Positions 8,571 to 64,000 of a stretch of 64,000 nucleotides of DNA are shown here, piece after piece; position 1 is the stretch's first letter, and each line of letters begins with the position of its first letter. Under the pieces are notes generated by a model. It had not been told where the DNA came from and searched no databases. It saw only the letters and a program-made list of their open reading frames with translations. This stretch comes from Candidatus Omnitrophota bacterium (GTDB lineage: Bacteria; Omnitrophota; Gorgyraeia; Velamenicoccales; JABMQK01), in the NCBI GenBank assembly GCA_028711115.1, contig JAQTSV010000001.1, forward strand, positions 838,032-902,031, read 5' to 3'. Position numbers and translations under genes: made by a program.

Positions 8571-11048
8571 TTATCGTAATTGCTTAAGATAGTATTTATT
8601 GCCATAGATTAGACGCAATAACCCATTTTTTATTATTCTCAAGGTATTATTATATCTATTGTCGTTATTGGTATAAGTTATAGAGCAGCGGTTACAACCG
8701 CTTATGTTTTGCCTCTTGCCCCTGAGCATTAAATTAATAAATTGCTTTCTGGTCATTGAATGCCATATATTCTCTAAAGTATCTTTAGAGAAATCTGCAT
8801 ATTCGGTCAATCCTTTTAGGTCCATGCAACATTTTGATATCTTTCCGGAACTATTAAGGGTAACGTTATTAAAAACAAACGAACAAAATCCTTTAGCAGA
8901 GCTAAAAACTTTGTCTTCTGTTTTAAACGATTCATTCCAGTTTTGCGGCTTCCAAAAACTGACATAATCTGCCATTTGGAAAATTTCTTTCATATGTTCG
9001 CTTATTTCTTTGCCCGATGAATTTTTATCTCTGCCATTATTAATTTGCACAAAAACAGGATGGCCGAGTTCCTCATTCCTTTTTGTCAACAGGCGCATAT
9101 TGTTCATAATAGTTTGAAACTTTGCTGGTGGCCGCATCTCCTCAAATGATGTTTCATCATAGCCGTCAATACTGCATATGATTTGTTTTATGATTCCTGA
9201 TTTCAGCACCAAATCAATTTTATCCTCATCCATCAATACCATATTATCGTTTAAAATAATATGAGGGGAAAAATTAGGGTATTTATTCATATAATCCCTG
9301 GTGATTTCTATTACTTTCTTATACTCAGGGCATAAAAAGAATTCCCCGCCTATAGGCCACTCCATTACCTTTATGTTATATTTTTTATTCTCACAGATTT
9401 CCTTGATTAACTTTTCATAAATATTTATATCCAGGTATTTTGGCCTATTCAGTTGTTCTAAGAAGCAATATTTGCACTTTAGGTTGCAAACAGAACAAAA
9501 TTCAATAGAAAGTATTTTTATGTCTTTCAATGTATTAAAACCCTTTATTAACTTTAGATATCTGTAAAGCCACACAAAATAGGTAAAGAAACAAGAAGTA
9601 CTTTGATATAATACCTTAATTAAGGTGATGAATATGTTTATTAAAGAAGAAGGGAATTCTTTTAATCTCTCTTTCACTGCCTCTATCACAGGGCGATAAT
9701 AATAAAACGAATGATTAGGAGTAGAGAGAAATTGTTTGATATGATACATGATTACTTTTTTACTTGAATAGAATTCCTGCAAAAATTTCCTCTGGTATTT
9801 TTCTAGTTCTTTTTTCGTTAAGGCTTTTGTCTCTATGACGCTGTTTCCCCACCTTTTGAAATCTTTCCAATCTTTGCAGACTAGCCTTATACCGTTTCTG
9901 CCCGATAAGGCATCTTTATATAAATCTGTCCCCGGATATGGTGTAAGTATATTGACGCCTATTTTGAATAAGGGAAGTTTTTTTGCGAAATTAATTGAAT
10001 CTTGAATAGTCTGGGGTGTTTCACCGGGATTGCCTATAATAAAACTCCCTCTCGTTTCTATGCCGAGTTTATTCATAATCTTGTAGGCTTTTTCATAATG
10101 TTCTAGTTTTGTAATTTTATTCATACGGTTTAGAATTTCCTGGTTTCCGGATTCTATGCCAAGGGTAATCTTATCAAAGCCAGCTTTTTTCATTAATGTA
10201 AGCAGTTCTTTATCGAGGACATCTGCTCTGGTAAAACAGAAGAAACTCAATTTTAACCTTTTTCTCAGAACCTCATTACAAATAGTTACCACCCTTTCTC
10301 TCTTTAAAGTAAATGTGTCGTCAAAGAATATAATCATCCGTACCCCTAATTTCTTATACGAATGTTCTATTTCGGATACTACTTGGAAAGGATTTTTAAA
10401 TCTTACTTCTTCTCCAAATAGATGGAAACAAAACGAACATTTAAAAGGGCAACCCCGCGAAGTCTCAATTGCATCAGTCTTAACTAAACCGCTAATGGGA
10501 TCTGGATGCCTATAATTTTTGTAATCAATAAGGTGCTTGCTGGGTAACGGTAATAAATTAAGATTGCCTATTAATGGGAAATGCAAGATTTTTTCCTTGG
10601 GTTTATTCTTGCAGATATAAACGATGGCCTGTTCGCCTTCGCCAGTTACTATATAGTCAATAATACCCTTTGCTTCTGCCAGAGATTCTTCCGGTAGCGC
10701 AGATACATGGGCGCCGCCAAAGACAATAGTGATTTTAGAATTACGATTCTTGATAAATTCTGCAATCTCTAGTGCAATATGATATTCCGGAGTGGTTGAC
10801 GTTATGCCCACGAATGAAGGGTTGTGATGGAGTGCTTCTTCGGCAATTTCTTCGCTATTCAGCAAAAATGGTTCGCCGTCAATTATAGTAACATTAAATC
10901 CTTCTTTTTCCAGGCTGCCGGCTAAACTTAAAAGACCTAGCGGCGGTCTTATCTCTCGATTTTTAGGAATTTTTCTATATATGCCTTCATAGATATTGCT
11001 GTATGAAGGTCTGATTAATACGATTTTATTATCAACTAGAGTTTTCAT
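8571..11048 (-). CDS. Fusion protein: B12-type radical SAM domain, hydrophobic linker, then a second radical SAM domain with a SPASM/twitch-like Cys-rich C-terminus
   Basis: 825 aa in one uninterrupted frame. First cluster is 'SRGCPFKCSFC' after a 'PPLGLLSLAGSLEKEGFNVTIIDGE' B12-like domain. The linker is 'FITLIKVLYQSTSCFFTYFVWLY'. Second cluster is 'FCSVCNLKCKYCF', and the C-terminus has 'GKISKCCMDLKG' and 'ISGCNRCSI'. Confidence 0.7.
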   Translation of the reverse strand: MKTLVDNKIVLIRPSYSNIYEGIYRKIPKNREIRPPLGLLSLAGSLEKEGFNVTIIDGEPFLLNSEEIAEEALHHNPSFVGITSTTPEYHIALEIAEFIKNRNSKITIVFGGAHVSALPEESLAEAKGIIDYIVTGEGEQAIVYICKNKPKEKILHFPLIGNLNLLPLPSKHLIDYKNYRHPDPISGLVKTDAIETSRGCPFKCSFCFHLFGEEVRFKNPFQVVSEIEHSYKKLGVRMIIFFDDTFTLKRERVVTICNEVLRKRLKLSFFCFTRADVLDKELLTLMKKAGFDKITLGIESGNQEILNRMNKITKLEHYEKAYKIMNKLGIETRGSFIIGNPGETPQTIQDSINFAKKLPLFKIGVNILTPYPGTDLYKDALSGRNGIRLVCKDWKDFKRWGNSVIETKALTKKELEKYQRKFLQEFYSSKKVIMYHIKQFLSTPNHSFYYYRPVIEAVKERLKEFPSSLINIFITLIKVLYQSTSCFFTYFVWLYRYLKLIKGFNTLKDIKILSIEFCSVCNLKCKYCFLEQLNRPKYLDINIYEKLIKEICENKKYNIKVMEWPIGGEFFLCPEYKKVIEITRDYMNKYPNFSPHIILNDNMVLMDEDKIDLVLKSGIIKQIICSIDGYDETSFEEMRPPAKFQTIMNNMRLLTKRNEELGHPVFVQINNGRDKNSSGKEISEHMKEIFQMADYVSFWKPQNWNESFKTEDKVFSSAKGFCSFVFNNVTLNSSGKISKCCMDLKGLTEYADFSKDTLENIWHSMTRKQFINLMLRGKRQNISGCNRCSITYTNNDNRYNNTLRIIKNGLLRLIYGNKYYLKQLR

Positions 11049-17275: not shown

Positions 17276-19104
17276 TTATTAATATCCGTTTTTATTCTAT
17301 TAGAATAAGCTAAAGTGATTCCAAAAAGGCTCCAGAAGAAAATAGCAGAGTACGGCATCTCAAATGTTACATAAACAAATGCCACTGTAAGCCAGTATAT
17401 AATGATGCTAACTAGCAATATGCCGATTAGTGATTTTGAGTTTACAAACCTTTTTATCATTTTAAACAAAGTAATAAAAAGATATATAATCAAGATGATT
17501 CCTATTATTCCGGACCGATAAATTAACTCAAGATATGAATTGTGGGCGGCAATCCATCCGTCCCTGGTCCACTCTCCATAGGCCATTCTTGAGATCTCAA
17601 TGCTTTCAGAACGCAGGGGCTTACCGAAGTTAAAGCCAAATATTGCTTTTTTACTTATTAATTCTTTTATCATATCTCTCCATGTTAGGAAACGATATGT
17701 AATTGTGCTTAAGCCTACTGTTAAATATTTTGTAGTATCGCCTTTCTTTATAGTTAAATCTGCCAAATAATTAATTATAGTTTTTCTGAAACGTGATTTT
17801 TTAGGTATTAAAATAATCACTTCTTTTTGTTGAGGCTCTTTTTTTTCTATAGCTCGTTCTATTGTTATGGCAGAAGATGAAATTATTTCTTGTGTTGTCT
17901 TTAGTCCAGGAGATGTTTCTGATATTGGTTTCTGGGATTCACTAGACGGTTCCGCTACTTTAGATGAGATCAATTCTTCTATGGATGATGGGATAATCTT
18001 TTGCCCAGGAGATGTTTTTGGTATTTGTTTTTGAGATTCATAGAGTTGAATAGCCCCTCCCTTAAATTCTATATTCTTTATTATTTCCCGTATTTCTTTG
18101 TACTCTTTTTGAGATAATGTTATTTTTATTTCTTCCAACTCAGCATGTTTTTCTGTAGCTATTTTTGCAAATTGGAAATTAAATTGAGGCAGAGTTTCTT
18201 TTGTCTCAGGACTATAGAGCTTGATAGGAATTTCTTCTTTGTGGTATTCTCCACCCCTATCCTTAATATTTCTCTCCCATTCATTAATGCTGCTAATTAT
18301 GGAGGTAGGGTAAATTAAAAATCGCATTCCCCCTCTATGGTACGATAATTTAATAATACTAAAAATAAAAATGATCATACATAAAACAAGGATACCTATT
18401 TTATGTATTCTTTTTATTTTTAAAATCATTATAATAGTCAGAAATAAAAAGGTAAATCCAGCAATGTTACCTATAATTTGAGTCCTAGGACAGTGTGAAA
18501 ATAATTTGATAAAAATAGGCATACAATCAGAGCGAGATAATACAATAAATAATAAGCCTAAAACTCTCAACAAATTATTGCGTACAATAAAAACATAAAG
18601 AAACATTAAAATCAAGTAGGTAAATTTATAATAAGTGCTTATTCCTATAAAATTCAAAATGAGAAATAAAGGAATTAATAATATATGGGGATTATTAAAT
18701 TTATTTTGATATGCTTCATATGCGATTAAAGCGAATAAAGGGTAATAGAACATGGCTGCATGCCGAAAGGCAAGTGCATTAAATTTTGGAACCCCCAGAT
18801 ATCCCCAGAATGCTTTTAATAAAACAAAGAATAAATAGAAAATTAGAATAATATGAAATCCGCTAAACTTCTTTTTTATTAAAATCCATTTATATATAGT
18901 GAGTAGAATACATACAAATAAAATAATTTCACCAATAAAAATAGGAAAGTTTAAAAAAGGTAATTTAATATGAATTTCGGCAAAAGCTTTGTAACCTATA
19001 GAATAAGCCAGAAAAGACATCCATAATATGGATAAAATAATAAAATCTACAGCATCTGTTTTTGATTCAATACCATATTTTTTAAAAAAATTCATATAAG
19101 CCAC
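17272..19104 (-). CDS. Wzy/O-antigen-ligase-family membrane protein with a large hydrophilic insert
   Basis: 610 aa and multi-TM. Wzy_C-type motif 'AAHNSYLELIYRSGIIG' lies near the C-terminus. A K/E/S-rich insert of about 190 aa sits between the TM blocks. Confidence 0.6.
   Translation of the reverse strand: MAYMNFFKKYGIESKTDAVDFIILSILWMSFLAYSIGYKAFAEIHIKLPFLNFPIFIGEIILFVCILLTIYKWILIKKKFSGFHIILIFYLFFVLLKAFWGYLGVPKFNALAFRHAAMFYYPLFALIAYEAYQNKFNNPHILLIPLFLILNFIGISTYYKFTYLILMFLYVFIVRNNLLRVLGLLFIVLSRSDCMPIFIKLFSHCPRTQIIGNIAGFTFLFLTIIMILKIKRIHKIGILVLCMIIFIFSIIKLSYHRGGMRFLIYPTSIISSINEWERNIKDRGGEYHKEEIPIKLYSPETKETLPQFNFQFAKIATEKHAELEEIKITLSQKEYKEIREIIKNIEFKGGAIQLYESQKQIPKTSPGQKIIPSSIEELISSKVAEPSSESQKPISETSPGLKTTQEIISSSAITIERAIEKKEPQQKEVIILIPKKSRFRKTIINYLADLTIKKGDTTKYLTVGLSTITYRFLTWRDMIKELISKKAIFGFNFGKPLRSESIEISRMAYGEWTRDGWIAAHNSYLELIYRSGIIGIILIIYLFITLFKMIKRFVNSKSLIGILLVSIIIYWLTVAFVYVTFEMPYSAIFFWSLFGITLAYSNRIKTDINK
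17906..18040 (-). repeat. In-frame 99-nt-period imperfect duplication inside the Wzy-like gene
   Basis: 36-nt cores at 17906-17941 and 18005-18040 match at 31/36 positions by hand alignment. They encode 'ESQKPISETSPGL' and 'ESQKQIPKTSPGQ'. Confidence 0.6.
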
Positions 19105-20154: not shown

Positions 20155-21540
20155 TTAACTCATCACTATCCAATGGTAAAATCTTTTCGTTAAAAACAAA
20201 AGATGCCTTAATGATTTTATGCTTAAAATATTCTTCCACAGGATTTTAGGCCTGGCATAAAATCTAAGAAAGGCAATTCGATGTAATCTCTTCAATTCTT
20301 TTCTGGATATTCCTATTGGCGTATAGGCAGAGTTCATAAAATAAAACCTGTCCCAATTGACTCTCTCAAGCTCGCCATTTTTTGCTAATTCGCTATAGCT
20401 TTCTGTTCCCGGGAAAGGTAAATAAGTAAAGAAATTTGCCCTGATTAAATCAAGCTCCAGCGAAAGATTAATGGTATCCATAATTTCTTCTTTTTTCTCT
20501 CCCGGGAATCCCAATATGAAAAACCCCGCTATATCTATACCGCAACTTTTAATTAAGGCTATTGATTTCCTTATCTTCTCGACTGTAAGATTTTTCTTCA
20601 TCAATTTAAGGATCCTATCTGAGCCGGATTCTATTCCCAGGGATATCAAATAAAGTCCGCTTTGCTTCATCAAGGCAAGCAATTCTTTATCCAACATATC
20701 CATCCTGACTCCATTTGGCGTAGACCAGCTAATATCTAGATTTTTGACAATTAGTTCTCTCAGGAAGGTTTTGGCATAAGCCACGTCTAAAGTGAAATTA
20801 TCATCTATAACATGAAATTCTCTTATGCCGTAATCTTTATAAAGCATGTCTATTTCGTTAATGACTTCTTTGATACCGCGTTTTCTTAATTTTACGCCGC
20901 TGACAAGTTTTCCCGCGCAAAAGGTACACTGATAAGGACATCCCCGGGTAATCATTATAGGCGCTATGGGGAACTTTTTATAAAAAGCACCGTGCTGAGA
21001 CTCCGGATATTGTTCAGGATGTATAAGATCCCAAGACAACATACCTAAGCTATCAAGATTATTCTCAAAATAGCAATCATTTGATTCTATGGTACCGTTT
21101 TTTCTCCATACAAAACCAGGGATATCAGAGAAGTTTATCTTTTCGCCATTTAAATAATCCACAAAAAGCGAGAAGCTCTTTTCAGCTTCACCCTTGAATG
21201 CAAAATCAAGCTTATTGCCGAAATATTCCATGGTTTGCTGCGGAACCGCTGAAGGATGCGGCCCGCCCATAACGGTAATAATCTTTTCATCGTAGTTTTT
21301 AACAATATTAAGAGCATCCTTAAGAAAACGCAGATCAAAAGTATAGCACTGGAAACCAACCAAGTCGGGCTTATAATTTTTTATTATCTCTCCAAGTTGT
21401 TCTATCTCTACTCTTTCTTTTATGCAGTCCAAGATTCTAACATCGCTTTTATTACGTATGGCTGTCGCCAAATAACCTAACCCAAGCGATGGCTGTATAT
21501 GATCCGTTAAATTATATGGTTTTACTAATAGTGTCTTCAT
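20155..21540 (-). CDS. Cobalamin-binding-type (class B) radical SAM enzyme
   Basis: N-terminus 'MKTLLVKP...PSLGLGYLATAI', followed by the cluster 'TRGCPYQCTFC'. Confidence 0.75.
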   Translation of the reverse strand: MKTLLVKPYNLTDHIQPSLGLGYLATAIRNKSDVRILDCIKERVEIEQLGEIIKNYKPDLVGFQCYTFDLRFLKDALNIVKNYDEKIITVMGGPHPSAVPQQTMEYFGNKLDFAFKGEAEKSFSLFVDYLNGEKINFSDIPGFVWRKNGTIESNDCYFENNLDSLGMLSWDLIHPEQYPESQHGAFYKKFPIAPIMITRGCPYQCTFCAGKLVSGVKLRKRGIKEVINEIDMLYKDYGIREFHVIDDNFTLDVAYAKTFLRELIVKNLDISWSTPNGVRMDMLDKELLALMKQSGLYLISLGIESGSDRILKLMKKNLTVEKIRKSIALIKSCGIDIAGFFILGFPGEKKEEIMDTINLSLELDLIRANFFTYLPFPGTESYSELAKNGELERVNWDRFYFMNSAYTPIGISRKELKRLHRIAFLRFYARPKILWKNILSIKSLRHLLFLTKRFYHWIVMS

Positions 21541-55075: not shown

Positions 55076-55645
55076 TTATATTTCCTTCGTCTTTATAAAA
55101 CTAATAAGTTTTTTTATACAAGTTTTTAAATCATATTTTTCCGTATCTAATACCAAATCCGCATTTTTAGGCATCTGATAGGGTACATTTTTATCAATAC
55201 CGATAAAATTTTCTATCTTTCCGGATAAGGCTTTTTTATACAGCCCCTTGGGGTCTCTTTTAATAACAGTTCCAAGCGAAGCTTTACAATAAATCAAATA
55301 TAGCTGCTCTCCAATTGTGCTTTTTACCTGCTGCCTGGACTCCTCAAACGGAGAAATAACTGTTACAAAAATATAATCATATTTTTTCTTATTGATTTCT
55401 TGTTTACAAATCTCAGCTATTATCCTATTGTTTTTCTTAATGTGTTTTGGTGTAAATTTCAGGTGTCTATTCAGTTTTTGTCTTACAATATCGCCATCAT
55501 AAATTTTGATTTTTTTCTTTATTTTTGAAAGTGATTTCTTAGTTTCATTGGCAATGGTTGTTTTTCCAGAACCAGAAAGACCTGTAAACCAAAAAACTAG
55601 AGTTTTTTTATTCAACAAAGACCTTCCCTCCTTCTTTAATTTCAT
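55076..55645 (-). CDS. cysC: Adenylyl-sulfate (APS) kinase
   Basis: P-loop 'FWFTGLSGSGKTTIA' and 'DGDIVRQKL'. An 'AAGGAGG' followed 7 nt later by TTG at 55618 is an alternative start. Confidence 0.85.
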   Translation of the reverse strand: MKLKKEGRSLLNKKTLVFWFTGLSGSGKTTIANETKKSLSKIKKKIKIYDGDIVRQKLNRHLKFTPKHIKKNNRIIAEICKQEINKKKYDYIFVTVISPFEESRQQVKSTIGEQLYLIYCKASLGTVIKRDPKGLYKKALSGKIENFIGIDKNVPYQMPKNADLVLDTEKYDLKTCIKKLISFIKTKEI

Positions 55646-57788
55646 TTAGAACAAAGTCCGAAACTTCTTTTCTCATAAACCAGTCGGGAGGAGCTTTTTT
55701 AAAACCAAACATTTCTCTCGCATGTGTACCGCTTATCTCTGATATATTTTTATTATTATGTTTGCACTGCTCAACGTATTTACAGCATTTCTTGCAATAA
55801 TGCATTTCATTAAAAAATATCGGGACTATTCCAATATCTCCGAGATAATTGAAAAGCTTATGGGCATCGTCTTGTTTATAGTGGTTACCTACTCCCGTAT
55901 GATCTCTGCCAACAATAAAATGGCTGCATCCGAAATTCTTTCTGCACAAAGCCGTGAATACCGCTTCCCTTGGCCCGGAATATCTTGAATAATTCTGAAA
56001 AGCAGCCAAAAAAACCTTACCTTTAGGATAATACTTTTCTATCATTAGTTCATAGCTTCTCAGGATTACATCTGCCGTATAATCGCCTTTCTTTTTCGGG
56101 CCTATTACAGGATGGATAAAAAGACCGTCGCAGTGATATTTTTCAAAAGCAAGCATTTGAATATATTCATGAACACGATGAGCCACATTTCTTGTATGAA
56201 AACCAACCACCCTGTGCCATCCTTTATTTTCAAAAATTAATCTTGCTTGTCTCGGTGTTATTTCAAAATGTTTATATTTTGAAGGGAGGCGTTCGATTAA
56301 ATCTACTTTTCCGCTGAGAAAATATTCTCCTCTTCTTTTCAATTGCTGAACTCCGTAATGACTTTCATCATTGGTTCTAAAAGTTTCTCTTGCCATTTTA
56401 TCTAAATCGTAAGTATAAATTTCTTCTAAATTCAGTATAGAGAATGCTTTATTAGTGTTTCTCAAAACCAATGCAATTTTATTTCCGGGTTTAAATTTAC
56501 CAATATATTTTCTATCTACTTGTAAGAAAATTGGTAACGGCCAAACAACTCCGTTGGGGAGTTTGTAATTTTTGAGCACAGAATTAATTTCTTCCTTATT
56601 CATAAAACCCTGCAAAGGAGAAAAGGCGCCAATTGCAATCTGTTCAGCATCCAATAAAACAGTTTCATCTACGATTAATGTTTTATATTTATTTATTTCT
56701 TTGATATTTGGTTCCCTGACAACTCTGTTTACAAGAGTACCTCCATGCGGTTCTATTAATACGTATGAATCACTATCTTGTAAATTATCGAGAGAGTGAT
56801 TACGAGAAAAATCGAGGCATTGTTTAATCATCTTAGAAATCATCACTGTACAATTTATAGGATATGCTCCGATTGCGGTTTCAGCAGCAAGTACTAAGCC
56901 ATCTGCGCCATCGAGTAAAGTATTTATAACGTCATTTGCTTCTGCTCTCGTAGGTTTTTTGCTCCTAACCATTGACTCAAGTAAATTTGTAGCCACATAT
57001 ACAGGTATTTTCTTCTTATTTACCTTATTTATAATTAGTTTTTGAATGAGCGGTATTCTTTCTATAGGTTCTTCTCTGGAGAGATCTCCTCTGTCTATAA
57101 GTATAGAATCAGAAACGCTAATTATACCGTCGATATTCTTTACGCCTTCCCTATTTTCTATCTTGGAAATTATGTGAGCATTTTTTCCTAATTGACTACG
57201 GAAATATTCAACACTTTTTCTGTCAGAGGCAAATGACAAAGCAAAATATTGCAGACCGTGTTTTAGCCCGATCTTGATAGCTTCTTTATCTTTTTCAGAA
57301 ATCACTGGTAATTGTATATTTCTATCGACGGTTGCTGCTTTATTGCTTCCAATATAACCGTCAGCAACAACCCTTGCTGTTACGGAATCAAGATTCGTTT
57401 TAATAATTTGCAACAGCACAGATTCAAAGTCGATGCTAATCAAATCGCCAATCCTTAGTTCCCTGACAACAAAATTAGGGGTAAATGAAATCCTGCGAGA
57501 ATTACCGACTATATTTTTCTTTGTTATCTCAATCAAACTGTTTTCTTTTAAATAAACCTTATTATTTTCTACAAATCCGTTACGAATTTGGGCGCCTTCT
57601 GTATCAAGACACAATGGTTTATTCGTAAATCGCTTTATAGATAGTATTAAATTTTCCAAATCTTTTATTTCTGTATGAGAAAGGTTTAAACGAAAGATAT
57701 CCACCCCCAAAGAGTCCAATCTTAAAATAGTTCTTTCATCTATGGAAGAAGGACCAAGTGTACATAATATTTTTATCTTTTTTTTCAT
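55608..57788 (-). CDS. sat: Fusion protein: pyruvate-kinase-like catalytic barrel (about aa 1-335) joined to sulfate adenylyltransferase / ATP sulfurylase (about aa 340-726)
   Basis: PK half: 'KILCTLGPSS', 'FRLNLSHT', 'LDTEGAQIR', 'ISKIENREG', 'IDRGDLS', 'PTRAEANDV' and 'LAAETAIGAYP'. Sulfurylase half: 'EPHGGTLVNR', 'GAFSPLQGFM', 'GFHTRNVAHRVHEY', 'HPVIGPKKKGDY' and 'GPREAVFTALCRKNFGCSHFIVGRDHTGVG'. The frame is continuous. Confidence 0.8.
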   Translation of the reverse strand: MKKKIKILCTLGPSSIDERTILRLDSLGVDIFRLNLSHTEIKDLENLILSIKRFTNKPLCLDTEGAQIRNGFVENNKVYLKENSLIEITKKNIVGNSRRISFTPNFVVRELRIGDLISIDFESVLLQIIKTNLDSVTARVVADGYIGSNKAATVDRNIQLPVISEKDKEAIKIGLKHGLQYFALSFASDRKSVEYFRSQLGKNAHIISKIENREGVKNIDGIISVSDSILIDRGDLSREEPIERIPLIQKLIINKVNKKKIPVYVATNLLESMVRSKKPTRAEANDVINTLLDGADGLVLAAETAIGAYPINCTVMISKMIKQCLDFSRNHSLDNLQDSDSYVLIEPHGGTLVNRVVREPNIKEINKYKTLIVDETVLLDAEQIAIGAFSPLQGFMNKEEINSVLKNYKLPNGVVWPLPIFLQVDRKYIGKFKPGNKIALVLRNTNKAFSILNLEEIYTYDLDKMARETFRTNDESHYGVQQLKRRGEYFLSGKVDLIERLPSKYKHFEITPRQARLIFENKGWHRVVGFHTRNVAHRVHEYIQMLAFEKYHCDGLFIHPVIGPKKKGDYTADVILRSYELMIEKYYPKGKVFLAAFQNYSRYSGPREAVFTALCRKNFGCSHFIVGRDHTGVGNHYKQDDAHKLFNYLGDIGIVPIFFNEMHYCKKCCKYVEQCKHNNKNISEISGTHAREMFGFKKAPPDWFMRKEVSDFVLNEIKEGGKVFVE

Positions 57789-57809
57789 CTTTTAATTCTT
57801 AAATATTTA

Positions 57810-58778
57810 TTAAAACAATTTTCCTTTTTCATGAAGCGATGCTAAACGCATCATCAATTTAAACATTTTAGGAGAAGCCATTTTTTTAATGAACAGCATC
57901 TTTTTCTTTCTTTCTAATGGGTCTATTTTTCTATTACAATTTTCCCTGGCGAGAATCGTTGACATCGATTCAGAAGGAATTGTGTTTAAAAATAATCCCG
58001 CCTTCTTTACAACAGCCCATGAATCTTCTATTAAATCTTCATAAGTAACAAACAAAATATTTTTTTTATGTTTAAGCGGAAGAAGGCCGTAAGCATTTTG
58101 TGATATTTCAGTTATGATTTCTATGCTTTTAATTATGCGATCCATTCTTGATAATTTTATATATTCATCACTCCAGTTATATGCATACCAAGGAATAGTC
58201 TTGTTATTTATATTAACACAAGGGGATAAGTAAAGCGGATCGGAAATTTCCCTACCCCCAAAACCTCTAAGATACCAAGAATACATGATATCTATCGGGT
58301 GTCTTATAATATGAATCATTTTGAAATCAGGAAACGATTTAAAGAATATATTTATGCAAGGTAGGACTTCGTGCGTTACAAATACGGATATTCTTTTATC
58401 TTTATTTATTGCCTTAACGGTCTCTTTGCGATCTTTATCTTGGCTAAAAGTTTTTAATAAATACCTTCCGAGATCGGGGTATTTGAATATGGAGGAACCA
58501 TCGTTATAACGAAAGTTTAAATTCCTACCTATTCCTATATTATATACCCATTGGTCTACCATTATCTGCAACAGAGAAATTGCAGTATCTTCCCTAATAG
58601 CTCCTAATTTTTCTAAATAAGGGATTATTTCTATTAAATCAACAGCCTGAAAATGTTCTGTGCTCTTCAACCCGTCAATAATCCGTCCCAGGAAGAACTT
58701 TCCAGAACGAGTAATACCATCTAATATAACTAATTTCTTGACTAAAAGGTTTTTAGTGGCGACTTTAATTTCCTGCAT
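57810..58778 (-). CDS. Sulfotransferase-family protein
   Basis: 5'-PSB-like 'LDGITRSGKFFLGRI' and 3'-PB-like 'IHIIRHPIDIMYSW'. It lies directly upstream of sat and cysC. Confidence 0.55.
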   Translation of the reverse strand: MQEIKVATKNLLVKKLVILDGITRSGKFFLGRIIDGLKSTEHFQAVDLIEIIPYLEKLGAIREDTAISLLQIMVDQWVYNIGIGRNLNFRYNDGSSIFKYPDLGRYLLKTFSQDKDRKETVKAINKDKRISVFVTHEVLPCINIFFKSFPDFKMIHIIRHPIDIMYSWYLRGFGGREISDPLYLSPCVNINNKTIPWYAYNWSDEYIKLSRMDRIIKSIEIITEISQNAYGLLPLKHKKNILFVTYEDLIEDSWAVVKKAGLFLNTIPSESMSTILARENCNRKIDPLERKKKMLFIKKMASPKMFKLMMRLASLHEKGKLF

Positions 58779-58785
58779 ACGTACT

Positions 58786-58792
58786 CCTCCTT
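58786..58792 (-). promoter_or_regulatory. Shine-Dalgarno sequence AAGGAGG for the sulfotransferase gene
   Basis: The reverse complement of 58786-58792 is AAGGAGG, 7 nt upstream of the ATG at 58778. Confidence 0.6.
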
Positions 58793-58904
58793 AGAAGGTT
58801 TAAATAAATTTAATACGGCTCGAATTTGAGCTTCCAAATGCCGTCTACTTTCCCAAGAACATCCTTGTTGGCAAATTTATCGAGTACATCATCAAATTCT
58901 TTTC
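58792..58904 (-). pseudogene. Left copy of a 113-nt direct repeat: orphan 3' remnant (last 31 codons plus stop) of a WbuX-type amidotransferase gene, with its downstream spacer
   Basis: Hand alignment to 60352-60464 gives 109/113 identical, with mismatches at 58840, 58843, 58845 and 58853. It translates to 'KEFDDVLDKFANKDVLGKVDGIWKLKFEPY*', against 'KEFDDVLDKFANKDVLEKVNGIWKLKFEPY*' in the intact gene. There is no start codon. Confidence 0.85.
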
Positions 58905-58935
58905 GCTCTTTTCTCCTTTGATATCGATACCATAT

Positions 58936-59730
58936 TTACTTAAATGACTTAAAGAAATCGATATCCCAACTCGCCATATCTATGCTACATTTCTGCATTG
59001 TTGATCGTGCATCTGTAAGACCATCTTCAATAAAATTAAACAAATTAGCGGTAGATACAGCATCTGCTTTGCCTTGTAATATCCCGTCAGTAAAATGATT
59101 GAATTTCCCTATTCCGCCAGAGGCAATTAAAGGAACCATTGAGACCTCGGATATTTTTTTAATTATATCTAAGTCGAGGCCTTCTCCGGTACCATCGTTA
59201 TCCATAGAAGTTAAATAAATCTCTCCACAATTTAGTCTCTCGGCCTTTTTTACATGCTCTTCCACAGTTAAGCCTGTAGAATGACTGCCGTCGTGTATAA
59301 AAGTTTCCGTGTGTCTATCGTGTTTCTTATAATCAATGGAGGCCACTATGCACTGGCTGCCGAATGTCTTAATAAACGAAATTACAAGTTCAGGATTAGT
59401 TATAACTGGGGTATTGATGACTAATTTATCAGCTCCAGCGTCAAGTATCATATAGGCATCTTCTATTGAACGTATACCTCCTCCGGCAGCAATCGGCATA
59501 AAGCACCTTTTGCTTAACTCTATAAGGTTACGTGAAAATTCCTTAACGTCTTTTTTCTCTCTCTCCACATTAAAAACAATTAGCTCATCGATAGAAAAGG
59601 CTATGGCGTCAAAATTATAGCATTCCCTTATCCAATCAATATTCCCTACCGACTGCAGAGAGAAATTCCTACTTAGCATATAAACGCCATTTTGCATTAA
59701 CAATGTAAAGATTAATCGTTTCTTTAGCAT
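58936..59730 (-). CDS. hisF: HisF-like cyclase subunit (WbuZ-type glycosyl-amidation partner)
   Basis: 'PIAAGGGIRSIEDA', 'GADKLVINT' and 'PLIASGGIGKFNH'. It lies in a glycan locus beside hisH-like and WbuX-like genes, so it is probably not the histidine-pathway copy. Confidence 0.8.
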   Translation of the reverse strand: MLKKRLIFTLLMQNGVYMLSRNFSLQSVGNIDWIRECYNFDAIAFSIDELIVFNVEREKKDVKEFSRNLIELSKRCFMPIAAGGGIRSIEDAYMILDAGADKLVINTPVITNPELVISFIKTFGSQCIVASIDYKKHDRHTETFIHDGSHSTGLTVEEHVKKAERLNCGEIYLTSMDNDGTGEGLDLDIIKKISEVSMVPLIASGGIGKFNHFTDGILQGKADAVSTANLFNFIEDGLTDARSTMQKCSIDMASWDIDFFKSFK

Positions 59731-59734
59731 ATTC

Positions 59735-60352
59735 TTACAGTTGGCAAAAATTCCTTAATACTACGAGTCCGTTACTTAAACTCTTTTCTGGATGAAACTG
59801 CGTGCCAAAGATATTCTTGTATTGAACACTTGCAATAAACCTCTCTCCGTAATTAGCCCATGAAGAACTATATTTCTCCTGTTCAAGACAAACCATCCTG
59901 TAGCTGTGCACAAAATAAAAATCCGCGCTTTCTCCTAACCCCTTAAATAAATTAACCGGGGTGCCCTGAAAATAAACCCTGTTAAAACCGATATGTGGAA
60001 TCTTAATACCCAATACTTGTGCCGGAAATCGTTTTGCTGCAGCTGGAATCCAGCCAAAACCTTTGGTCAACCCGTCTTCCTCCCCTTCATCAGCAAAAAG
60101 TTGCATCCCAAGACAAATACCTAAAATATAGTTCTTTTTTATAAGCACAGCTTCATTTATTGCATCAAAAAGGCCTCTATTTTTTATGTTATCCATTGCC
60201 ATGCGAAATGAGCCCACTCCCGGAAGTATTAATTTTTCGCTCTCTAAAATCTCAGCGGCAGAATTCACGATTCGGCAATCAACTTTTATAAAATTAAGGG
60301 CATTATACACAGAACGAATATTGCCCATCCCGTAATTGATTATAGAGACCAT
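59735..60352 (-). CDS. hisH: HisH-like glutamine amidotransferase subunit (WbuY-type)
   Basis: 'MVSIINYGMGNIRSV', 'LPGVGSF', the nucleophile 'GICLGMQL' and 'QFHPEKS'. The track start (60397) is a TTG extension into the upstream gene. I use ATG at 60352. Confidence 0.8.
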   Translation of the reverse strand: MVSIINYGMGNIRSVYNALNFIKVDCRIVNSAAEILESEKLILPGVGSFRMAMDNIKNRGLFDAINEAVLIKKNYILGICLGMQLFADEGEEDGLTKGFGWIPAAAKRFPAQVLGIKIPHIGFNRVYFQGTPVNLFKGLGESADFYFVHSYRMVCLEQEKYSSSWANYGERFIASVQYKNIFGTQFHPEKSLSNGLVVLRNFCQL

Positions 60353-60464
60353 AGAAGGTTTAAATAAATTTAATACGGCTCGAATTTGAGCTTCCAAATA
60401 CCATTTACTTTCTCAAGAACATCCTTGTTGGCAAATTTATCGAGTACATCATCAAATTCTTTTC
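60352..60464 (-). repeat. Right copy of the 113-nt direct repeat: hisH start codon, 17-nt spacer and the 3' end of the intact amidotransferase gene
   Basis: See 58792-58904. The offset between copies is exactly 1560 nt. Confidence 0.85.
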
Positions 60465-61542
60465 TCGTTATCCGGAAATACTCCACAAATTTACCTATTA
60501 ATTGTTCCGGATATTCCCCATCATACCTTCTGACAAGAGCTAAGGCCTGCTTCCTGTCTAGGGCACCCCTACGCACATCAATGCAGGCATCGGAAGTAGC
60601 CCTACCGAAACCAAATTTCAAAAACATAAGATACACGTGTAAATCCTGCAAATCGTCATCTAACTGCGCGAAGTTTGTATAAGTGCCGATACTTCGTGTT
60701 GGCAGCGTCTGAAAACCGCAATGCTTCTTAGCAAACAGATAATGCTCATACGGATTCCAGTCTTCAAAATACGACCAATAAGCCATAAGCACGCCACTTT
60801 TATCCAATACCTCTTGGCTCGGGAACCTCCACCACTTGACATCATGATCAGAGATTCCCATTTTTCCCACAGCCCTGTCTGATTCACAACCGCTAAAATA
60901 ATAAGTCACCGTTTCCGCCCTGTCCATAAAGTATTTTTTATCAAAATTTCCAGAGCCACCGTATTCTGCCTCTCCCTGTTCGCCGTACATTAAAAAAGGA
61001 ATGTTGAGTTTTATGCTGAATTCAACGACAATCGTAGTAATTCCGGAAATAAAAGGCTCTTTCGGCTGGCCTTCTTCAATCAATCCTACCTTAGCCAACT
61101 TTCTGTATGATTCCGGGTCAGGGCTTACCATGATATGATCAAACCCCGCTTTGATGAAGTTCTCTAAGTTTCGTTTGCCTATTTCTGTGGGCATTTGCGA
61201 CGCAACGGTTATGCATAAAGGATGCATCCCCAATTCGTGTTTCATCTTCCAAGCGACGTAGCTGCTATCTTTGCCGCCGCTACCAGGAACAATAACATCA
61301 AAACTTCCGTCTTTTCTGCGGTATTTATCGCACAGCTTTTCCACTTCATTCCACCGCTTTTTCCAGTCAGTATTCTTTCTTTTGTATTCAGCGTGCAGGC
61401 AGGCATTACATACTCCTTCTGAATTAAATACAATTCGTGGACGAGCGGATGGCGCCAAACAACTTTTACAATAAAACATTTTTCTTTCTTCTTTTTTTAA
61501 AACGATATCTTTACCATCGCCCTGATTATTTAAAGTTTCCAT
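60370..61542 (-). CDS. N-acetyl sugar amidotransferase (WbuX/PseA family, PP-loop)
   Basis: 'CKSCLAP...GVCNAC' Zn ribbon and 'VPGSGGKDSSY'. It lies directly upstream of the hisH/hisF homologues. Confidence 0.8.
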   Translation of the reverse strand: METLNNQGDGKDIVLKKEERKMFYCKSCLAPSARPRIVFNSEGVCNACLHAEYKRKNTDWKKRWNEVEKLCDKYRRKDGSFDVIVPGSGGKDSSYVAWKMKHELGMHPLCITVASQMPTEIGKRNLENFIKAGFDHIMVSPDPESYRKLAKVGLIEEGQPKEPFISGITTIVVEFSIKLNIPFLMYGEQGEAEYGGSGNFDKKYFMDRAETVTYYFSGCESDRAVGKMGISDHDVKWWRFPSQEVLDKSGVLMAYWSYFEDWNPYEHYLFAKKHCGFQTLPTRSIGTYTNFAQLDDDLQDLHVYLMFLKFGFGRATSDACIDVRRGALDRKQALALVRRYDGEYPEQLIGKFVEYFRITRKEFDDVLDKFANKDVLEKVNGIWKLKFEPY

Positions 61543-61556
61543 AGATATGGCTCCTT

Positions 61557-62945
61557 TTACGTTTGTCTGAAGCCTCTAAAATCCCTGTTTTTATGTAAAT
61601 ATAAATCTTTTGTCTGGTTAAACATTGACTTTATCTTCTTTTGAAAATAATTTCTAAGCAATCTGGTATTTGCCTGCAATAAACATCTATGAAATTCGTC
61701 ATCGCTCATATTGGTAAAATTAACCGACAGCAAATCTGAATTCACGTGTTTATTTTCGTAAAAGTCCTCACAGTCTTTCAATAATCCTTTCTTAATTGCA
61801 TAGTAATATAATGGTGAACCGGGATACGGCGTAACAGGCCGAATTGTTCTGACCTGGGCTCCATCATCGTATTTCAGAAGAAACTCCACTCCTTTTTCTA
61901 AGGTTTCCCTGGTTTCACCGATATTGCCAAAGATAATATTGTAACCCGGGCTAATTCCTATTTTTAACGTTGCCTCAATTCCCGAGATTATCTGTTTTGT
62001 AGTCAGCGTTTTATTCATATTCTTAAGAATTTGGTCATCCATGGCTTCTATTCCATAATTTATGAATACACAGCCGGATTCTTTCATTAATCTTAAAACA
62101 TCTTCACGGGCATAGTTTAATCTGCCATTGCAAGACCACTTAATTTTTAAATTCGCTCTGATAAAATCTCTGCATAATTCTTCGGTTCTCGCTATGGAAG
62201 ACATCAAAAGTTCATCCCCAAAAGCAATATAAGTAATACCGTAATCTTTCTGTAACAATTTGATTTCTTCTATAATCGCTTCATTTTTTCTTGGGCGAAA
62301 ACCTTCATCCATTCGATAACAAAAATTACAATTAAAAGGGCATCCCCTGCCGGAAAGCAGCCGCATTACAAAATCTGTTGTTTCACAATGTGGCATCCGC
62401 AATAATCTGTAATATTCCATGGGGAAAAGTTCGTAAGCCGGTCGTGCGATGCTATCAACGTCTTCTATCAGAGGCTGGCGTTCGTTAATTACGACTTTAT
62501 TTCCGTCACGATAAGCAATCCCTTTGACTTTAGATAATGATTTGTGTTTGCTGAGTGAATCCATCAAATTCAGAATAGTTATTTCGCCTTCTCCGATAAC
62601 AACTGCATCGGCCCCGGTCTTTTTAATAAAATATTCTGGTTCGGGAGCAGGGCCATGGCCGCCTATCACATAAAAAGGTCTATTTTTTGAATTGTTAATT
62701 GCTGTAGATAGTGACAACAACTTTCTATATTGGAAATATCCCCCAATGATGCTAACTCCCACTACGTCAAATTTGTTCTTATTTAAATATTCGGTAAGAT
62801 GCTCATCAGGATAATGATTAAAATCCTGGCTATATATCTCTACCTCTATTCCTTCTTTGCGTAAAACTGAAGCAATGTAAGCCAACCCCATCGGAAAATC
62901 ATGGATATACGATTCGTTATCATAAACAACTAATAATACTCTCAT
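61557..62945 (-). CDS. Cobalamin-binding-type (class B) radical SAM enzyme
   Basis: 'MRVLLVVYD...FPMGLAYIASVLRKEGIEVEIY' and the cluster 'GRGCPFNCNFC'. Confidence 0.75.
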   Translation of the reverse strand: MRVLLVVYDNESYIHDFPMGLAYIASVLRKEGIEVEIYSQDFNHYPDEHLTEYLNKNKFDVVGVSIIGGYFQYRKLLSLSTAINNSKNRPFYVIGGHGPAPEPEYFIKKTGADAVVIGEGEITILNLMDSLSKHKSLSKVKGIAYRDGNKVVINERQPLIEDVDSIARPAYELFPMEYYRLLRMPHCETTDFVMRLLSGRGCPFNCNFCYRMDEGFRPRKNEAIIEEIKLLQKDYGITYIAFGDELLMSSIARTEELCRDFIRANLKIKWSCNGRLNYAREDVLRLMKESGCVFINYGIEAMDDQILKNMNKTLTTKQIISGIEATLKIGISPGYNIIFGNIGETRETLEKGVEFLLKYDDGAQVRTIRPVTPYPGSPLYYYAIKKGLLKDCEDFYENKHVNSDLLSVNFTNMSDDEFHRCLLQANTRLLRNYFQKKIKSMFNQTKDLYLHKNRDFRGFRQT

Positions 62946-62970
62946 ATTTTTCTCTCTATTGTTCCGGCTT

Positions 62971-64000
62971 TTATTCTACTTGGTAACGCAGCTTCCACTT
63001 TCCATCAATTTTTTCCCATAAATGAGGTGATTTGAACTTATCGCATAATTCGAAGAACCGTTCTTCTTCCATGCTGATATATCCCATAACTTCTTTAAAA
63101 TATTTCTTAGGAAATTCTCCGTCAAAACGATGTACCAATGAAACCCCCTCTTGTCTGGTTAAATGCTTATTCCTAATCTCTTGTGAAGCATCATAGGAAG
63201 CCCTGCCAAGACCGAATTTAATGTAAGTGGTATAGTAATGTAATCCGTCTATACGGTCATCTAAACTATTATATTTTGAATACGTCCCTTCTGAACGCTC
63301 AGGATTGGCTTGAAATCCGCTATGCTCAACAGAGTAATAATAGGCTTCCTGCGGAGTCCACTTCAAATAATATCCTAAATAATGTACCTCTATTTTTGAA
63401 CGTTCCAAATCTTCAACGCTTGCCGGTAAATAAGTAAGGATATCATTGAGGGTTAAATTATATTTGCCCATAAGCTCCTGGACACAAACACCGGAAAGAT
63501 ATGTTTTTGAAAAATTCTCCATAGTAAAGTATGATTTATTACGTAACGAAGTGACATTATCAGCAATAGGATTTCCGTATTCTGCTTCGTTCTCACCATA
63601 AAAAATTAACGGGATACCGTATTTCGATGCAATCTTTGGTGCTAAGTTTTTCTGACCCAATATAAACGGCTGAAATGGATGGAGCAAATTCTCAATCGCT
63701 AATCTTGTCAGCAGAGCGTGTACCTTTGCATTGTAATTAAATGAAATATTATCGAATCCGCCTTTGTAAATCCAATTGCGGAAGTTTTTCCAGCCGATAT
63801 CAGTATAAATCAGAGGCGGCCAAGTAACTGTTAAAGGATGCATATTGTATTTGTATTTCAGGACATGTGCGGCGTAAACACTATCTTTACCACCACTGCC
63901 AGGGACTATACAATCATAATGCCCGTCATTACGCCGATGTTTATCTAATAGCTGGAGCAATTCTTCTTCTCTTTTTTTCCAGTTTATCTCTTCTTTTTGT
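62971..64000 (-). CDS. N-acetyl sugar amidotransferase paralogue (WbuX/PseA family), with its 5' end beyond the right window edge
   Basis: 'VPGSGGKDSVY'. The track start at 63960 is a TTG. The frame stays open to nt 64000 ('QKEEINWKKREEELLQLLDKHRR' parallels 'TDWKKRWNEVEKLCDKYRR' of the paralogue), and the expected Zn-ribbon N-terminus is missing. Confidence 0.75.
   Translation of the reverse strand, partial: QKEEINWKKREEELLQLLDKHRRNDGHYDCIVPGSGGKDSVYAAHVLKYKYNMHPLTVTWPPLIYTDIGWKNFRNWIYKGGFDNISFNYNAKVHALLTRLAIENLLHPFQPFILGQKNLAPKIASKYGIPLIFYGENEAEYGNPIADNVTSLRNKSYFTMENFSKTYLSGVCVQELMGKYNLTLNDILTYLPASVEDLERSKIEVHYLGYYLKWTPQEAYYYSVEHSGFQANPERSEGTYSKYNSLDDRIDGLHYYTTYIKFGLGRASYDASQEIRNKHLTRQEGVSLVHRFDGEFPKKYFKEVMGYISMEEERFFELCDKFKSPHLWEKIDGKWKLRYQVE

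Follow-up and report, generated by a model that had tools for sequence, protein, structure and literature searches.

The question raised by this locus is why a gene array that is otherwise almost free of gaps should contain a single large one, and what the DNA in that gap is. In the 64,000-nt stretch of Candidatus Omnitrophota bacterium DNA analysed here (the window), the long open reading frames (ORFs) lie at most 38 nt apart, except where 157 nt (58779-58935) separate a hisF-like gene from a sulfotransferase gene. This gap holds a 116-nt copy of the end of wbuX, an amidotransferase gene that itself lies intact further upstream, ahead of hisH and hisF. It is because of this remnant that the window has its single large intergenic gap, which would measure 41 nt without it, in line with the other gaps. 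With a probability of roughly 0.6, the copy is a non-functional pseudogene fragment, i.e. a scar left, where an amidination and a sulfation module adjoin, by a local rearrangement that started from an ancestral gene order wbuX-hisH-hisF-sulfotransferase (X-H-F-S).

A repeat on either side of hisH and hisF

A repeat search of the window returns two direct copies of 116 nt, at 58789-58904 (the left copy) and 60349-60464 (the right copy), with a spacing of 1560 nt and an identity of 96%. Column-by-column comparison at an offset of 1560 together with local alignment gives 111 identities over the 116 ungapped positions, with the five mismatches (in left-copy coordinates) at 58791, 58840, 58843, 58845 and 58853, and similarity drops to background directly beyond both repeat ends. 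In a self-BLAST of the whole window the pair is by far the strongest repeat (E=2e-47), the next best being one of 69 nt at 78% and one of 49 nt at 84% identity, and a repeat of 116 nt is far above chance expectation. An earlier reading of the same DNA from its letters alone (the sequence-only reading) had reported a 113-nt core (58792-58904, 109 of 113 positions, offset 1560), which is correct and equals the present repeat minus 3 nt, and the self-comparison by which it had proposed to verify this is the one that recovers the pair. The two lesser pairs, at 10147-10214 / 20624-20691 (69 nt) and 17898-17946 / 17997-18044 (49 nt), are probably due to paralogous coding sequences and to a short local repeat.

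All genes at the locus are on the minus strand, and both copies are read on that strand. The right, functional copy (60349..60464) comprises the last 31 codons of wbuX (60370..61542, 390 aa), which encode the protein end …KEFDDVLDKFANKDVLEKVNGIWKLKFEPY*, with the stop codon TAA at 60370-60372, the 17-nt spacer at 60353-60369, and the ATGG that opens hisH (wbuY-like; 59735..60352, 205 aa), the ATG of which occupies 60352-60350. The left, orphan copy (58789..58904) repeats the wbuX 3' end with its stop and the spacer, ends in AAGG, and has no in-frame ATG, GTG or TTG. Between it and hisF (wbuZ-like; 58936..59730, 264 aa; stop at 58936-58938) lies a spacer of 31 nt (58905..58935), in which GAGAAAAGA is found at 58907-58915. 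The TAA of hisF is a true stop, because the C-terminus of the HisF-like protein aligns through to the end of its homologues; the HisH N-terminus, MVSIINYGMGN, also agrees with relatives. On the other side, the left copy runs into the ribosome-binding region of the sulfotransferase gene (57810..58778, 322 aa; ATG at 58778), which reads directly as AAGGAGGAGTACGT (58779..58792). The remnant's last four nucleotides are the first four of this region (AAGG), with AAG in place of the hisH ATG, and this final AAGG opens a Shine-Dalgarno sequence AAGGAGG located 7 nt ahead of the sulfotransferase ATG. The sequence-only reading had thus described the right copy accurately (31 codons, stop, 17-nt spacer and hisH ATG), and it had also placed the orphan copy correctly, in the largest gap of the window (157 nt vs 38 nt for the next) and near the sulfotransferase Shine-Dalgarno sequence.

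Reality, conservation and possible function of the left copy

The source of this DNA is metagenome-assembled, so a chimeric join or a mis-resolved repeat in a metagenome-assembled genome (MAG) has to be considered. Two assemblies at NCBI (GCA_028716625.1, contig JAQUPK010000001.1, and GCA_028714715.1) show the same single arrangement, and the second of these (L003 in the numbering of loci and contigs used here) is identical over 2969 nt including the remnant, although the two may stem from the same study. Independent contigs and unitigs from Logan, built at k=31, were compared as well, i.e. read-derived graphs rather than raw reads. Both novel junctions occur in the Logan contigs, namely hisF-31 nt-repeat and repeat (A variant)-sulfotransferase: contig L004 starts 30 nt ahead of the A/T mismatch at the hisH start and continues into the sulfotransferase gene, and unitig L067 (1507 nt, present in 3 samples) corresponds exactly to 60381..58875 of the window, so that it spans the unique hisH-hisF segment and extends 30 nt into the repeat at either end. 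The breaks fall exactly k-1 = 30 nt into shared sequence, as expected of a true repeat. Because the second assembly is identical and the breaks of the k=31 contigs coincide exactly with the ends of the repeat, the repeat is real in the genome and not an assembly product, the more so as the two copies differ at five positions; the chance of an artefact is negligible.

For the comparison with other genomes, 51 genome loci were gathered with a WbuX alignment (the best 63% identical) and 80 metagenome loci with a sulfotransferase alignment, with several more contigs added by exact protein look-up. The nearest relatives in the searched collections are distant, the next WbuX being 66% and the next sulfotransferase 56% identical. 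At the nucleotide level, where the nearest relatives are ~60-66% identical, a second copy of the locus's own wbuX 3' end was found in 0 of 30 related loci. At the protein level, hisF is followed by a WbuX C-terminal remnant in none of 18 loci with the order wbuX-hisH-hisF (X-H-F), in a test that detects the window's own locus at E=2.5e-18, and the metagenome contigs of the Joint Genome Institute (JGI) contain no match to a 29-mer of the repeat. As far as these loci reach, the remnant is lineage-specific, which is also the outcome of the junction comparison in related genomes that the sequence-only reading had suggested.

It could still be that the left copy has been retained as a functional element, be it as a promoter, 5' leader or structured RNA serving the sulfation genes, or as a deliberate site of recombination by which hisH-hisF (hisHF) is switched on and off. 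In favour of retention, the copy has survived in a gene array that is extremely compact elsewhere, and its ATG-to-AAG change makes for a better sulfotransferase Shine-Dalgarno sequence. The minimum-free-energy fold of the left copy moreover shows a small hairpin in which two substitutions of the cluster replace G-U by G-C pairs, although this carries no statistical weight. The other results point the opposite way. In frame with hisF, the 42 codons between its TAA and that of the remnant form an open stretch, but they include no ATG, GTG or TTG, and because there is no start codon the remnant is not translatable by itself. An RNA structure in either copy was rejected, since the folding energies equal those of shuffles: neither the 142-nt nor the 82-nt flanked versions are more stable than their dinucleotide shuffles (z from -0.42 to +0.16). 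A scan of 57500-62000 against Rfam gives 0 matches at E<=1, and no terminator is called inside the repeat. The motif TTGGAA-16 nt-TATTAA, which the sequence-only reading had described as promoter-like, is present in both copies but is not called by a promoter scan with a sigma-70-type pattern (from which the consensus in Omnitrophota may differ), and promoter-like sites are in fact rarer in the region than in shuffles (10 vs 15.3 +/- 4.2 over 4.5 kb), so that this part of the claim lacks support. Together with the absence of the remnant from all related loci, these results make a retained functional element highly improbable.

Mobile DNA was considered too. A transposable element, a miniature inverted-repeat transposable element (MITE) or a cassette with target-site duplication was rejected: the bracketed 1444 nt encode hisH and hisF only and the duplication is 116 nt long. 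The repeat search finds no inverted repeats at the ends of the unit, and there is no insertion sequence (IS) element or transposase near the remnant. An older second remnant within the 31-nt spacer was likewise discarded, its best match within 4 kb, at the hisH start (TATGGT.TC.ATA-TCAA), scoring 11, below the shuffle mean of 11.6; apart from GAGAAAAGA, local alignment gives no other significant similarity of this spacer.

With its identity to a parent gene, its sharp ends, its lack of any means of expression, its lack of conservation and its reality in the genome, the left copy is a duplicated pseudogene fragment. We infer that it is neutral and has no dedicated function. The sequence-only reading had called it a recombination scar, and this is borne out: the repeat is real, the left copy is a non-coding remnant of the amidotransferase 3' end, and related loci lack it.

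Direction and mechanism of the rearrangement

The locus can be written as A-R-U-R'-B, where A is the body of wbuX, R the repeat, U hisH-hisF plus 31 nt, R' the left copy, and B the rest of the Shine-Dalgarno sequence with the sulfotransferase gene. A history starting from (a) X-H-F-S and one starting from (b) wbuX-spacer-sulfotransferase each need two novel junctions. According to the first and preferred one, the segment running from wbuX codon -31 to hisH nucleotide 4 would have been copied, in an ancestor with the order X-H-F-S, into the roughly 41-nt spacer between hisF and the sulfotransferase gene. The 1560-bp unit could have been duplicated in tandem and the second hisHF then deleted, or template switching could have placed the copy there in a single templated insertion. 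Later divergence would have brought 5 substitutions into the fragment, among them the change from ATG to AAG, by which an upstream out-of-frame start codon would have been removed and the Shine-Dalgarno sequence of the sulfotransferase extended to AAGGAGG. This change may have been selected, or it may simply represent the original sequence if hisHF was inserted. The 9-nt GAGAAAAGA stands two bases before the left copy and recurs across the start of the right copy, at 60458-60466 (shuffling gives P about 0.012); it may be the microhomology used at the upstream junction. Because both copies share the 17-nt spacer after the stop, the duplication most likely took place within this lineage and was not the import of a foreign allele.

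Gene order among relatives supports an ancestral X-H-F-S arrangement, X-H-F being the majority order, including the Omnitrophota loci L010 (X-H-F-S, with a distant sulfotransferase) and L011, while L130 is also X-H-F-S. The two novel junctions coincide at a single point in the former 41-nt spacer, which supports the same ancestor, and the hisH N-terminus and hisF C-terminus, which are intact in comparison with relatives, are counted for it as well. On this origin the wbuX-hisH junction may be old and the left copy newly inserted. This order of events is what we infer from the above, and the rearrangement may have run in another direction.

Several observations weigh against copying from X-H-F-S, and a number of them would be easier to understand if hisH-hisF had instead been (re-)inserted into an ancestral wbuX-spacer-sulfotransferase junction, with the left copy as the original wbuX 3' end. 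The end of the repeat coincides with the hisH start codon, which a simple downstream copy does not explain and which is more natural for an insertion of hisHF, where selection for a working insert would require the boundary at this point; in addition, the 17-nt spacer lacks a Shine-Dalgarno sequence for hisH. A gene of the WbuX family lies directly upstream of the sulfotransferase gene in the closest sulfotransferase relatives, L005 (56%) and L061 (54%), and in 9 other loci, so the junction of remnant and sulfotransferase could itself be ancestral. The similarity rankings of the trio are incongruent, wbuX being closest to L009/L006 and 58% identical to L010, which is the closest to hisH (65%) and hisF (66%), and wbuX has the highest GC content (0.418) and third-position GC content (GC3, 0.428) among the 59 ORFs of the window. 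This hints at separate histories of wbuX and hisHF, at a time scale deeper than that of the 96% repeat, and the trio may be of mosaic ancestry. It is furthermore somewhat surprising that a dead fragment of 116 nt should persist at 4% divergence where gaps are otherwise <=38 nt. Four of the five mismatches are packed into 14 nt (P about 0.02), contrary to what neutral decay predicts; this cluster could reflect a single multi-base event, or gene conversion that wiped out other differences. Finally, there is no close relative (WbuX 66%, sulfotransferase 56%), which limits the view of how far the remnant is conserved. An insertion could have proceeded by homology-facilitated illegitimate recombination (HFIR), in which an incoming wbuX-hisH-hisF would cross over homologously within wbuX and be joined illegitimately, 31 nt past hisF, at codon -31 of the resident wbuX. 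It could also have been a Campbell-type integration of a 1560-bp circle via the 116-nt homology. Against this stands that the WbuX genes upstream of the relatives' sulfotransferases are of another type (X'), only 38% identical to the wbuX of the window, and that X-H-F is a conserved unit in most relatives. Moreover, the spacers of donor and recipient would need 20 identical nucleotides up to the hisH ATG despite the different genes that follow, and because identical spacers require an earlier breakpoint at the same spot, an insertion needs at least as many events. The sequence-only reading had offered just such an insertion between the amidotransferase and the sulfotransferase; in view of the X'-sulfotransferase order in L005 and L061 it stands as a possibility, but X-H-F is the commonest order among relatives, and on balance we consider the insertion possible but less likely.

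A third history would start from hisH-hisF-wbuX-sulfotransferase: wbuX and its downstream spacer would have been copied before hisH, after which the old copy was deleted save for its last 31 codons, in effect a circular permutation of the genes that left a scar. The order hisH-hisF-wbuX is indeed found in L006-L009, the closest WbuX homologues (65-66%), and in L012, and both the adjacency of wbuX to the sulfotransferase and the repeat end at the hisH ATG would be accounted for. The 31-nt spacer also contains a Shine-Dalgarno-like AAAGGAG, which could be the former ribosome-binding site of wbuX. Three novel junctions would be required, however, the 31-nt spacer is unlike the present upstream region of wbuX except for the generic AAAGGAG, and the Omnitrophota loci L010 and L011 have X-H-F, which together make a relocation of wbuX improbable.

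Some further observations concern the same gene orders. Among the relatives the arrangement F'-H'-X'-sulfotransferase recurs (L005, L061, L069, L072, L084, L085, L087, L095, L096, L111 and L118), and the recurrent adjacency of X' and sulfotransferase suggests a functional link, in the form of amidination and sulfation of the same sugar. In Actinomycetota MAGs (L031, L034, L035, L043, L046, L049, L055 and L057) a recurrent order is X-H-F-X2-F2, in some cases followed by a sulfotransferase, so that a full second amidotransferase sits where the window has a fragment only; the second WbuX is divergent and the second F is HisF-like. A compositional step at the junction was examined and rejected, as GC3 is 0.35 upstream and 0.30 downstream, both inside the gene range of 0.24-0.43, and only wbuX is outlying.

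A seam between amidination and sulfation modules

The genes on the upstream side of the seam are those of an amidination system. WbuX, an N-acetyl sugar amidotransferase, matches TIGR03573 above its trusted cutoff (349.7 bits, cutoff 203.2) over profile positions 1-343 of 344, and HisH is a WbuY-like glutamine amidotransferase subunit (HisH-type glutaminase). The HisF-like protein has TIGR03572 as its best family but remains under the trusted cutoffs (230.7 vs 299.7 bits for TIGR03572 and 165.1 vs 310 for NF038364); from its best-scoring family and the fitting context it is judged to be WbuZ-like, and not a certified member of WbuZ. The earlier description of hisH-hisF as a cassette is therefore misleading, as the profile matches identify them as WbuY/WbuZ-like partners of the amidotransferase and not as randomly inserted histidine-biosynthesis genes. 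Like the WbuX/WbuY/WbuZ trio of acetamidino-sugar synthesis (WbpG-HisH2-HisF2 type), the trio of the window has the canonical X-H-F order and a WbuX that belongs to TIGR03573, but unlike it, its HisF-like protein falls below the WbuZ and AglZ/HisF2 cutoffs and the cluster holds a second, divergent set.

On the downstream side, the sulfotransferase (PF00685) is the first gene of the sulfation module, followed on the minus strand by a fusion of pyruvate-kinase barrel, PUA and ATP sulfurylase (55608-57788) and by adenosine 5'-phosphosulfate (APS) kinase (55076-55645). The fusion protein has 726 aa, with the pyruvate-kinase barrel at residues 3-312, then PUA_2 and ATP sulfurylase, and it accompanies the sulfotransferase in many related loci (e.g. 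L063, L065 and L076).

Upstream in the same cluster are NeuB, genes of the cytidine monophosphate (CMP)-transferase type, the second divergent set F'(291 aa)-H'(238 aa)-X'(402 aa), and a B12-radical-S-adenosylmethionine (radical-SAM) gene. Contig L001 (5796-12607, corresponding to about 58936-64000 of the window and past its end) carries F'-H'-X' and the B12-binding radical-SAM gene, then X(390)-H(205)-F(264). The two amidination systems are paralogues with an identity of 34-41% only. Judged from this gene content, the setting is a nonulosonic-acid glycan cluster with two amidination systems plus a sulfation module. All 59 long ORFs of the window (1-64000) are on the minus strand, with gaps of <=38 nt except at the remnant, which makes this co-directional array unusually long and dense, and a large part of it apparently serves glycan biosynthesis.

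Short non-coding fragments of biosynthesis genes are a familiar sight at the module junctions of O-antigen and capsule clusters, where they are lineage-specific and read as recombination scars. The fragment described here resembles them in being non-coding, lineage-specific and located at the seam of two surface-glycan modules, but unlike them it is a 96% copy of a gene that is intact 1.4 kb upstream, and not the relic of a lost or foreign one. Displaced 3' remnants, an analogue for the insertion of hisHF, have been described for the orphan immunity arrays of effector-immunity loci of the Vibrio cholerae type VI secretion system (T6SS; outlined in PMC5361080), and HFIR has been described in E. 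coli (outlined in PMC3240628). As these sources outline it, a homology anchor upstream is combined with an illegitimate join inside the resident gene, so that the 3' end and the downstream gene stay, much as in the window. The identical downstream spacer in both window copies favours an intragenomic duplication over a foreign allele, and HFIR is one candidate mechanism only.

Consequences of the repeat for the glycan locus

Neither the reading frame nor the stop is broken in the left copy. For this reason a homologous exchange between R and R' would excise hisHF, and the amidotransferase gene left behind would be full-length, altered in no more than two residues (E to G and N to D) and directly upstream of the sulfotransferase, i.e. 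an X-to-sulfotransferase arrangement of the kind found in relatives. At these two sites the right copy has the residues of the family consensus (E and N), but some relatives, L011 and L016 among them, share the D of the second site. The reciprocal exchange would yield a product with two hisHF units. That hisHF could be looped out cleanly between the copies, as the sequence-only reading had proposed, would thus agree with the frame and stop of the left copy. Direct repeats of 116 nt and 96% identity flanking 1444 nt are a standard substrate for RecA-dependent deletion and amplification; those of the window are known from contigs only, in one arrangement and with no deleted or amplified variant observed. 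Deletion variants would in fact be invisible in contigs, because recombination inside shared sequence makes no new k-mer.

It is conceivable, but very improbable, that the repeats form a working switch, in which RecA-mediated loop-out and unequal exchange reversibly delete or amplify wbuY/wbuZ (hisHF). If so, cells would vary in the amidination of a sulfated nonulosonic-acid surface glycan, with the F'-H'-X' set as a backup, and the remnant would be kept by selection in an otherwise gap-free 64-kb array. Under the preferred reading of a pseudogene scar, the fragment has two effects only: it lengthens the 5' leader of the sulfotransferase gene, and it offers 116 nt of homology on which RecA-type recombination could delete or amplify hisHF.

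The finding is an ordinary one, a pseudogene fragment located where two modules of a glycan cluster meet, and it is new only as an instance. The remnant is best annotated as a pseudogene fragment, and not as a gene or regulatory element, while the hisF-sulfotransferase junction is marked by it as a recombination seam between amidination and sulfation modules in a poorly known phylum. Assemblers may break at this repeat, as the Logan contigs do, and deletion or amplification variants of hisHF could exist there; such variants, if found, would be a small example of the plasticity of glycan loci in Omnitrophota.

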